A stretch of DNA of 64,000 nucleotides. Origin: Escherichia coli (GTDB lineage: Bacteria; Pseudomonadota; Gammaproteobacteria; Enterobacterales; Enterobacteriaceae). The position numbers are program-made. Every line of letters starts with the position of its first letter. Position 1 is the stretch's first letter. Location of the stretch: the NCBI RefSeq assembly GCF_003018255.1, contig NZ_CP027440.1; one strand, given 5' to 3'. This document shows positions 24,001 through 27,000 of the stretch, one piece after another.

Positions 24001-27000
24001 CGCAGCAGTGCGCATTCCGGCCATGCTGGCGGAATTTAACCGTCGTTATCCCAAAATTCAGTTTTCACTTTCCACCGGCCCTTCCGGCACTATGCTGGAA
24101 GGTGTGCTGGAGGGAAAACTGAATGCGGCGTTTATTGATGGACCCATTAACCATACTGCCATCGACGGGATACCGGTATACCGCGAGGAACTAATGATCG
24201 TCACGCCACAAGGACATGCGCCAGTCACCCGTGCCAGTCAGGTGAATGGCAGTAACATTTATGCCTTCCGCGCCAATTGTTCGTATCGTCGCCACTTCGA
24301 AAGCTGGTTTCATGCTGACGGTGCCGCTCCGGGAACTATTCACGAGATGGAGTCTTATCACGGGATGTTGGCCTGTGTGGTCGCAGGAGCAGGCATTGCG
24401 CTTATTCCACGCTCTATGCTGGAAAGTATGCCGGGGCATCACCAGGTTGAAGCGTGGCCGTTAGCTGAGCAATGGCGTTGGTTAACAACCTGGCTGGTCT
24501 GGCGTCGTGGTGCGAAAACGCGTCCGCTTGAGGCATTTATTCAACTGCTGGATGCGCCTGACTCGGCAAAACAGGGTTACCAATGAGCTATTTTTGATAG
24601 TTCATGCGGCTAATATGCTCTATATAGTGATGCTCCGATGACTTATGACTATATGGGGCAAATATGGTTACGCCAGTAAGCATCAGCAATTTCATCTCAC
24701 TTCCTGATGATTTTCCCGTTCGCAATATTGCACCTCAGGTAAAAGAAGAACAGGCCCCCTTCCTGATCGTCATTAAAATGTGATGTTAACAACTCTCTGA
24801 TGCGTGACAGAACAACCGTCAGAGAGATGGAAATGCGATCCAGATCACAAATGCATTGTATTCACATCATTAACCGTTTTAAGATCATTTCATCACTTTT
24901 TCGCAACTCACCCGATAATCTGTTATGACAACAAACACTGTTTCCCGCAAAGTGGCGTGGCTACGGGTCGTTACGCTGGCAGTCGCCGCCTTCATCTTCA
25001 ACACCACCGAATTTGTCCCAGTTGGCCTGCTCTCTGACATTGCGCAGAGTTTTCACATGCAAACCGCTCAGGTCGGCATTATGTTGACCATTTACGCATG
25101 GGTAGTAGCGCTAATGTCATTGCCTTTTATGTTAATGACCAGCCAGGTTGAACGGCGCAAATTACTGATCTGCCTGTTTGTGGTGTTTATTGCCAGCCAC
25201 GTACTGTCGTTTTTATCGTGGAGTTTTACCGTTCTGGTGATCAGTCGCATTGGTGTGGCTTTTGCACATGCGATTTTCTGGTCGATTACGGCGTCTCTGG
25301 CGATCCGTATGGCTCCGGCCGGGAAGCGAGCACAGGCATTGAGTTTAATTGCCACCGGTACTGCACTGGCGATGGTCTTAGGTTTACCTCTCGGGCGCAT
25401 TGTGGGGCAGTATTTCGGTTGGCGAATGACCTTCTTCGCGATTGGTATCGGGGCGCTTATCACCCTTTTGTGCCTGATTAAGTTACTTCCCTTACTGCCC
25501 AGTGAGCATTCCGGTTCGCTGAAAAGCCTCCCGCTATTATTCCGCCGCCCAGCATTGATGAGCATTTATTTGTTAACTGTGGTGGTTGTCACCGCCCATT
25601 ACACGGCATACAGCTATATCGAGCCTTTTGTGCAAAACATTGCGGGATTCAGCGCCAACTTTGCCACGGCATTACTGTTATTACTCGGTGGTGCGGGCAT
25701 TATTGGCAGCGTGATTTTCGGTAAACTGGGTAATCAGTATGCGTCTGCGTTGGTAAGTACGGCGATTGCGCTGTTGCTGGTGTGCCTGGCACTGCTGCTA
25801 CCTGCGGCGAACAGTGAAATACACCTCGGGGTGCTGAGTATTTTCTGGGGGATAGCGATGATGATCATCGGGCTTGGTATGCAGGTTAAAGTGCTGGCGC
25901 TGGCACCAGATGCTACCGACGTCGCGATGGCGCTATTCTCCGGGATATTTAATATTGGAATCGGCGCGGGTGCGTTGGTAGGTAATCAGGTAAGTCTGCA
26001 CTGGTCAATGTCGATGATTGGTTATGTGGGCGCGGTGCCTGCCTTTGCCGCGTTAATATGGTCAATCATCATTTTCCGCCGCTGGCCAGTGACACTCGAA
26101 GAACAGACGCAATAGTTGAAAGGCCCATTTGGGCCTTTTTTAGTGGTACGTTTTAATGATTTCCAGGATGCCGTTAATAATAAACTGCACCCCCATACAT
26201 ACCAGCAGGAATCCCATCAGACGGGAGATCGCTTCAATGCCCCCCTTACCCACCAGCCGCATAATTGCGCCAGAGCTGCGTAGACTTCCCCACAAAATAA
26301 CCGCCACCAGGAAAAAGATCAGCGGCGGCGCAACCATCAGTACCCAATCAGCAAAGGTTGAACTCTGACGCACTGTGGACGCCGAGCTAATAATCATCGC
26401 TATGGTTCCCGGACCGGCGGTACTTGGCATTGCCAGTGGTACAAAAGCAATATTGGCGCTGGGTTCATCTTCCAGCTCTTCCGACTTGCTTTTCGCTTCT
26501 GGTGAATCAATCGCTTTCTGTTGCGGAAAGAGCATCCGAAAACCGATAAACGCGACGATTAAGCCGCCTGCAATTCGCAGACCGGGAATCGAAATGCCAA
26601 ATGTATCCATCACCAGTTGCCCGGCGTAATACGCCACCATCATGATGGCAAAGACGTACACCGAGGCCATCAACGACTGACGATTACGTTCGGCACTGTT
26701 CATGTTGCCTGCCAGGCCAAGAAATAACGCGACAGTTGTTAATGGGTTAGCTAACGGTAGTAACACCACCAGCCCCAGGCCAATTGCTTTAAATAAATCT
26801 AACATTGGTGGTTGTTATCCTGTGTATCTGGTTTATCAGCGAAAAGTATAAGGGGTAAACAACGATAAAGTGTCACTCTTTAGCTAACCTTGCATCGCAT
26901 TGACCAAAACTTGAACCGATTTAGCAAAACGTGGCATCGGTCAATTCATTCATTTGACTTATACTTGCCTGGGCAATATTATCCCTTGCAACTAATTACT

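Follow-up and report, generated by a model that had tools for sequence, protein, structure and literature searches.

A remnant of yneK between ptrR and ydeA in an Escherichia coli genome

The window analyzed here, a stretch of 64,000 nucleotides from Escherichia coli contig NZ_CP027440.1, has 338 bp between ptrR (yneJ) and ydeA (sotB), at positions 24587-24924, and no ORF of 1 kb there. The counterpart interval in E. coli K-12 MG1655 is 1,342 bp long and houses yneK (b1527, UniProt P76150), a gene of 1,116 bp that encodes 371 amino acids. The short spacer very probably results from an old deletion within yneK, now fixed in a single E. coli branch, and contains what is left of the gene. In the window, yneK is a pseudogene remnant and not a functional family member.

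The ptrR–ydeA interval and the remains of yneK

Both genes that bound the interval are intact. The PtrR ORF scores 492.3 bits against model NF047711, over residues 1-282 of 283, and the YdeA/SotB ORF scores 667.8 bits against NF002921, over residues 1-395 of 396, or full length. The curated equivalog cut-offs, applied to the whole-protein score, are 400 and 401 bits, respectively, and each ORF belongs to its equivalog family. The surrounding neighborhood matches that of K-12, with sad and glsB upstream and marC downstream. In a megablast search with positions 23705-26115, K-12-like genomes match as two pieces across 3,415 bp, and UTI89, SE15 and strain 104 are collinear over 2,411 bp. Alignment of the window to K-12 leaves a net gap of 1,004 bp. 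The difference in spacing is deterministic and not statistical in nature, and the question of chance does not arise.

The first-pass annotation of this DNA had estimated the distance between yneJ and sotB at about 340 bp, had placed a yneK gene of about 1.1 kb in the K-12 interval, and had reported no ORF of that size here. All three points hold: the measured values are 338 bp and, in MG1655, 1,116 bp, the spacer contains only a residual ORF of 39 codons, and alignment to MG1655 returns different rather than equal spacings (338 vs 1,342 bp). Its conclusion that the genome lacks yneK stands as far as the functional gene is concerned, but the absence is not a clean one, as both ends of the gene remain as a stub (Table 1).

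Table 1. Features of the ptrR–ydeA region, in window coordinates. L048 is a contig that carries an intact yneK of the second haplotype described in the text.
Feature	Position	Strand	Basis
ptrR (yneJ), LysR-type regulator of putrescine utilization, intact, 293 aa	23705..24586	+	NCBIfam NF047711; length identical to K-12
ptrR-yneK spacer, 77 bp, wholly kept; presumed yneK promoter and ribosome-binding site	24587..24663	+	Collinear with K-12, UTI89 and L048
yneK 5' remnant: start codon, nt 1-85 (28 codons plus 1 nt)	24664..24748	+	Aligned with K-12 and with the intact allele of the L048 type
Residual 39-codon ORF MVTPVSISNFISLPDDFPVRNIAPQVKEEQAPFLIVIKM (then stop), product of the deletion, predicted only	24664..24783	+	Translation
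Deletion junction 1: 956 bp gone (yneK nt 86-1041, L048-type numbering)	24748..24749	.	Gap-affine global alignment
8-nt island AACAGGCC, yneK nt 1042-1049	24749..24756	+	L048 alignment
Deletion junction 2: 47 bp gone (yneK nt 1050-1096)	24756..24757	.	L048 alignment
yneK 3' remnant: final 20 nt; original TAA at 24774-24776 now out of frame	24757..24776	+	
Hairpin just 3' of yneK, 10-bp stem CUCUCUGAUG/CGUCAGAGAG, without U-tract	24793..24826	+	RNA fold
ydeA upstream region	24843..24924	+	Conserved also in Escherichia species without yneK
ydeA (sotB), MFS sugar (L-arabinose) exporter, intact, 396 aa	24925..26115	+	NCBIfam NF002921

Homology to yneK is found at the expected locus. Over its 28 residues the retained N-terminal segment matches the L048-type protein at 27 (window V19, L048 F19) and K-12 YneK likewise at 27 (F10 for Y10), and the last 20 nt of the gene align as well. 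A full-length gene would comprise about 371 codons. Here 1,003 bp of coding sequence is gone, and the C-terminal 11 residues of the 39-codon ORF are out of frame relative to yneK.

The hairpin downstream of the stub has a predicted folding energy of -19 kcal/mol (z = -2.6). It is present after yneK in all alleles, with z = -5.0 in K-12 and z = -4.0 in E. albertii. Of the features expected of a Rho-independent terminator it has the stem and lacks the T-run, and a terminator scan returned no match; Rfam 15 covariance models gave no match at E <= 1 across positions 24300-25200. Next to ydeA, the 87 bp at 24838-24924 are identical across K-12, UTI89, strain 104 and the window. The ydeA upstream region includes a sigma-70-like site at 24861-24888 (TTCACA-16-GATCAT), which is a match to consensus only.

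Frequency of the deleted allele and consequences of the loss

The identical deletion junction occurs in 1,115 of 5,426 complete RefSeq E. coli genomes, about one fifth, as detected by a probe of 151 nt across the junction in the window (at least 80% coverage and at least 95% identity). A second probe, 961 bp from within K-12 yneK (at least 80% coverage), finds the interior of the gene in 4,263 of these genomes, in which yneK is scored as intact in length. Other arrangements account for about 48. The indel of an accessory gene proposed in the first-pass annotation is supported, with its size refined to about 1.0 kb, out of a gene of 1.1 kb, and its polarity read as a deletion here instead of an insertion in K-12.

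Carriers of the deleted allele include UTI89, SE15, O25b:H4-ST131 and APEC O78:H4. We take UTI89, SE15 and ST131 to be members of phylogroup B2, and O78:H4 ST117 presumably belongs to phylogroup G. The complete genomes closest to the window are APEC O78:H4-like, with 99.2% identity across 24 kb and collinearity through the deletion; the divergence between them and the window is patchy, as expected from recombination. The junction of the common allele, which reads GTAAAAGAAG, AACAGGCC and CCCTTCCTGATCG in direct succession, is identical in six of six aligned carriers, and the window belongs with them. The 39-codon ORF is also intact in all six sampled carriers, where the sole difference is one F/Y polymorphism. 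PGAP gives the label "yneK, putative protein YneK, incomplete; missing C-terminus" in each of five carriers examined (UTI89, strain 104, APEC O78:H4 E12049, O25b:H4-ST131 strain 4433 and FDAARGOS_536). SE15 shows the same collinear match by megablast, with yneK listed beneath it.

The deletion leaves ptrR, ydeA and the ydeA upstream region untouched. Because these neighbors are intact, simple loss of the YneK protein is most likely its sole consequence; the loss would then be neutral and without effect on ydeA expression. It is quite unlikely that the deletion is instead non-neutral, either because the yneK upstream region now reads through toward ydeA or because a functional small protein is made from the 39-codon ORF. 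Such an effect would fit the retention of the upstream spacer, the start codon and the short ORF in six of six carriers from divergent lineages, although the variation among carriers is too scant for a selection test. It would fit also with genomic SELEX results for K-12, in which peaks of in vitro binding by RNA polymerase holoenzyme lie at the yneJ-yneK spacer and the 5' end of yneK (PMC5493296, PMC8743547), the portion of the locus that is kept in the window, and with the missing U-tract in the hairpin that separates the stub from ydeA. Full-length alleles, however, share both the hairpin and the ydeA upstream region, with no obvious change in how transcription toward ydeA is laid out; moreover, the last 11 residues of the 39-codon ORF are out-of-frame junk, and PGAP treats the stub as a pseudogene. 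Were the stub active, lineages of the B2 and G types would differ in regulation at the ptrR-ydeA-mar neighborhood, where the possible target of altered transcription, ydeA, is an arabinose/IPTG exporter gene.

The allele is an ordinary lineage marker, one that many RefSeq annotations already list as a pseudogene, and it matters little; yneK has no known function. A pangenome study handled yneK as a variable, uncharacterized gene and found it associated with bovine epithelial adherence (PMC11540155). Since strains with and without yneK divide largely by lineage, pangenome associations of this kind, that adherence result among them, are prone to confounding by population structure.

Origin of the deleted allele

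A protein search identified a full-length YneK variant (P0004) that is 84% identical to K-12 YneK and is encoded on contig L048 within the same ptrR-yneK-ydeA-marC context. The 5' remnant in the window carries L048-type SNPs (TTCATCTCA), and the 3' remnant together with the hairpin has one difference from L048 as against at least 12 from K-12-type alleles. Between the two yneK haplotypes dS is 0.58, vs 0.10-0.36 in the flanking genes. Intact yneK of the L048 type occurs in just 19 complete E. coli genomes. One of these, L049, combines an intact L048-type yneK body with a K-12-type hairpin and with flanks just 96.5% identical to those of the window. The locus is therefore a recombinational mosaic, and the parental haplotype is seen only in distant or recombinant backgrounds.

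The spacer in the window was compared with that of L048 by gap-affine global alignment, which was stable at gap-open penalties from -8 to -20. The alignment consists of the two deletions of 956 and 47 bp, plus one additional T in a T-run. Removal of those 956 and 47 bp from L048 reproduces the junction region of the window except for one A-to-C substitution. An alternative decomposition, into deletions of 945, 11 and 47 bp, yields the identical product. The two-deletion model has no microhomology at its junctions, and the three-deletion model has direct repeats of 3-4 nt, GAAG at the 945-bp junction and AAC at the 11-bp junction. As either decomposition ends in the same sequence, the breakpoints can be placed in more than one way and do not single out a mechanism. 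No mobile-element sequence occurs at the junctions, as each base of the 338 bp aligns to intact yneK-locus sequence, and a deletion mediated by an IS element or transposon was rejected on this lack of foreign DNA. With no mobile element involved, the deletion probably arose by replication slippage or illegitimate recombination.

The proposed history would begin with an ancestor that had full-length yneK of the L048-type haplotype. Loss of 956 bp (nt 86-1041) and 47 bp (nt 1050-1096) would have destroyed the gene, while the upstream spacer, the first 28 codons, the 8-nt island, the last 20 nt and the downstream hairpin survived. The deleted allele would then have spread through descent and homologous recombination.

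Several lines of comparison argue for a deletion in this lineage rather than an insertion in that of K-12: both ends of the ORF are kept, the parental haplotype is still found in intact form, and the outer junctions of full-length yneK in E. albertii are those of E. coli, from which it follows that the full-length gene predates the deletion seen in the window. The reverse polarity, with the short allele as the ancestral state of E. coli and about 1 kb inserted in K-12-like strains, is highly unlikely. It was considered in light of a wider survey, in which one genome per GTDB species was searched with a degenerate DNA pattern for the YdeA N-terminus and then by tblastn. The ptrR–ydeA spacer is about 118 bp, with no yneK, in E. 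whittamii, Escherichia sp. E1V33 and SCPM-O-B-8794, a strain deposited as E. coli; flanking proteins in these three are 93-99% identical to those of K-12. Citrobacter sp. FP75 likewise has an empty site, and a second Citrobacter (L021) has a spacer of 321 bp with no long ORF. Three Escherichia other than E. coli, and one of the two Citrobacter in which both flanks are readable, therefore have no yneK in the interval, and these empty sites imply that gain of yneK did occur at some time. The GC content of yneK, 40% vs 51-54% in its flanks, is also as expected for acquired DNA. The 118-bp empty sites, however, have none of what the window has kept, namely the 77-bp spacer, the 85 nt of 5' coding sequence, the 28 nt of 3' coding sequence and the hairpin. 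The window, moreover, joins the two ends of the ORF out of frame, such that an insertion would have to create a continuous ORF of 371 codons over both junctions. The outer junctions shared with the full gene of E. albertii, the intact L048-type alleles within E. coli, and the reconstruction of the window from L048 complete a case that largely refutes an insertion in K-12.

Comparison of occupied and empty sites shows yneK to be part of a cassette, about 1.25 kb in size, that E. albertii and E. coli possess and the empty-site species lack. Low-penalty global alignments between empty and occupied sites produced scattered, meaningless short blocks, and inspection and local alignments were used instead. 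The E. albertii cassette lies between exact direct copies of a 10-nt sequence, CGACAAAACG (3 of 500 shuffles), that matches single-copy sequence of the empty site. Flanking repeats are not significant in the window (249 of 500 shuffles) or in K-12 (418 of 500). With significance confined to the E. albertii allele, a target-duplication origin of the cassette is only tentative.

The chance that the short spacer is an artifact of assembly or sequencing, such as a collapsed region, is negligible, as the same junction recurs in 1,115 independently assembled complete genomes and is base-for-base identical in six sampled sequences.

YneK as a gene and comparison with known alleles

YneK is an AT-rich orphan restricted to Escherichia, dispensable and weakly constrained. 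Comparison of the two E. coli haplotypes gives a dN/dS of 0.15, and that of E. coli with E. albertii gives 0.17; values for sad, ptrR, ydeA and marC are 0.005-0.06. The ratios point to a real gene under weak purifying selection. YneK has only a sub-threshold match in Pfam (DUF1140, E = 0.16), no credible match in PADLOC, no match below E = 0.06 in PHROGs, and no match at E <= 1 among PDB sequences. An AlphaFold2 model built from an alignment of seven sequences has a mean pLDDT of 42.9, too poor for a fold search. A word-indexed search of 5.8 billion proteins returned 22 YneK clusters, whose named sources are all Escherichia or Shigella, and no remote homologue emerged when 1.84 billion representatives were searched exhaustively with a profile, all 48 matches being YneK fragments of at most 307 aa. 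An orphan confined to Escherichia, a cassette absent from some sister species, two deeply diverged haplotypes and repeated loss are descriptive by-products of this analysis.

Loss of yneK has occurred repeatedly, through different lesions. The gene has an internal stop in O157:H7 EC4115 and an IS1 insertion in BUCT2930, one E. albertii YneK protein has an internal deletion of 66 aa, and Shigella sonnei has a partial gene. These lesions hit the same dispensable gene, and annotation likewise marks it as a pseudogene or partial gene, but they are independent of the deletion in the window, arose by other mechanisms, and in no case share its junction.

The empty-site genomes, E. whittamii, E1V33 and SCPM-O-B-8794, resemble the window in having no functional yneK and in having the same ydeA upstream block, which there follows directly after ptrR. 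They differ from it in that their 118-bp spacer contains no yneK-derived sequence and in the C-terminus of ptrR, which ends in TSLEQHETAK. The differing spacer contents and ptrR ends indicate that the two kinds of yneK absence have separate histories.

K-12 MG1655 yneK shares with the window its locus, orientation, upstream spacer, start codon and downstream hairpin. Unlike the window, it retains nt 86-1041 and 1050-1096, and the yneK ends kept in the window belong to a haplotype deeply diverged from that of K-12 (85% nucleotide identity).

The closest likeness is to the carriers annotated by PGAP, which have the same position between ptrR and ydeA, the identical junction and the same 39-codon residual ORF, and which differ from the window by point changes only. 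Their spacer is 338 bp, as in the window, or 344 bp in those whose ptrR is 6 nt shorter; the window has the 882-bp form of ptrR, whereas strain 104 and APEC O78:H4 have the 876-bp form. In the 5' stub, strain 104 and APEC O78:H4 carry the same L048-type SNPs (F10) as the window, whereas UTI89 and ST131 carry K-12-like SNPs (Y10). The allele is already known, in that RefSeq carries it as a partial yneK pseudogene in other genomes.

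Origin of the deletion allele and independent lesions of yneK

The yneK deletion allele derives from the minor of two deeply diverged E. coli yneK haplotypes, which share 85% nucleotide and 84% amino acid identity when intact minor-type copies (L048 and L049) are compared with the K-12-type copy (L001). The dS between the haplotypes is 0.58, compared with 0.10-0.36 in flanking genes, and an intact minor-type yneK occurs in only 19 complete genomes. Inactivations of yneK in other lineages, listed in the table below together with the regions compared, are independent.

yneK lesions, compared regions and other located features
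Feature	Location or record	Strand	Source
Internal stop in yneK	L044:1381-2496		O157:H7 EC4115
IS1 insertion in yneK	H41 (NZ_CP059723.1)		Strain BUCT2930
Internal deletion of 66 residues in YneK	P0017		E. albertii protein
Partial YneK, 258 aa	P0011		Widespread in Shigella sonnei
Intact minor-type yneK	L048:179-1294		
Intact minor-type yneK	L049:5910-7025		
K-12-type yneK	L001:2460-3575		
ptrR 3' end	24560-24586		Window
ptrR 3' end	L002:2350-2376		Strain 104
ptrR 3' end	L004:23555-23581		APEC O78:H4 E12049
ptrR-ydeA spacer, 118 bp	L011:4002-4121		Non-coli Escherichia representative
ptrR-ydeA spacer, 118 bp	L028:5326-5445	reverse	Non-coli Escherichia representative
ptrR-ydeA spacer, 118 bp	L029:3950-4069		Non-coli Escherichia representative
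2,794-aa ORF	54439-62823	(-)	Window
Prophage-like context of the ORF	about 50000-64000		Window

Divergence from the closest genomes

No complete RefSeq genome exceeds about 99.2% identity to the window. When window positions 999-39719 are aligned with APEC O78:H4 E12049, the density of differences is very uneven. Some stretches have 0-1 per kb; elsewhere the figure is 10-26 per kb, and 22000-25000, which surrounds the yneK deletion, belongs to the latter class. Such strong patchiness relative to the closest complete genomes indicates recombination mosaicism. The stop codon of ptrR is also polymorphic in the 3' ends compared. The window shares an 882-bp form of the gene with K-12 and UTI89; strain 104 and APEC O78:H4, although otherwise the closest relatives of the window, carry a short form of 876 bp that ends at an earlier TAG.

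The 2,794-aa ORF lies within a prophage-like insertion downstream of ynfE/ynfF. Its counterpart in the best-matching genome, OkiPb01683, is annotated as an LPD38 domain-containing protein and adjoins Ant, TraR/DksA and Ea22-like genes plus a truncated 4Fe-4S (ynfG-like) gene. Coverage of window positions 39001-64000 reaches at least 80% in only 73 of 5,426 complete E. coli genomes, with a top identity of 95.5%.

The ptrR-sotB interval beyond E. coli

Spacers between ptrR and sotB measure 1-3.6 kb in records L009, L014, L026, L030 and L035-L041. Enterobacter, Kosakonia, Lelliottia, Yokenella, Superficieibacter and related genera carry other cargo there, with ORFs that, read from their N-termini only, are PhzF-like (MQEIDFYLVDAFSD...), acetyltransferase-like (roughly 155 aa) and lactate-dehydrogenase-like. 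The content of the interval is therefore variable across the family. Two public assemblies look like contamination or mislabelling: in L017 (SMXE01000224.1, "MAG: Caldithrix sp."), Sad, PtrR, YneK, SotB and MarC are all 100% identical to E. coli K-12, and in L025 (CACSKA010000003.1, "Chryseobacterium sp. 18061"), sotB and marC are Enterobacteriaceae-like.

Within Escherichia, E. albertii (L045-L047) has yneK at junctions identical in position to those of E. coli, and the gene there lies between two exact copies of a 10-nt direct repeat, CGACAAAACG. In three representatives of non-coli Escherichia species (L011, L028 and L029, one of them deposited as E. coli), the ptrR-ydeA spacers hold no trace of yneK, and the PtrR C-terminus of these yneK-less representatives differs from the E. 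coli form.
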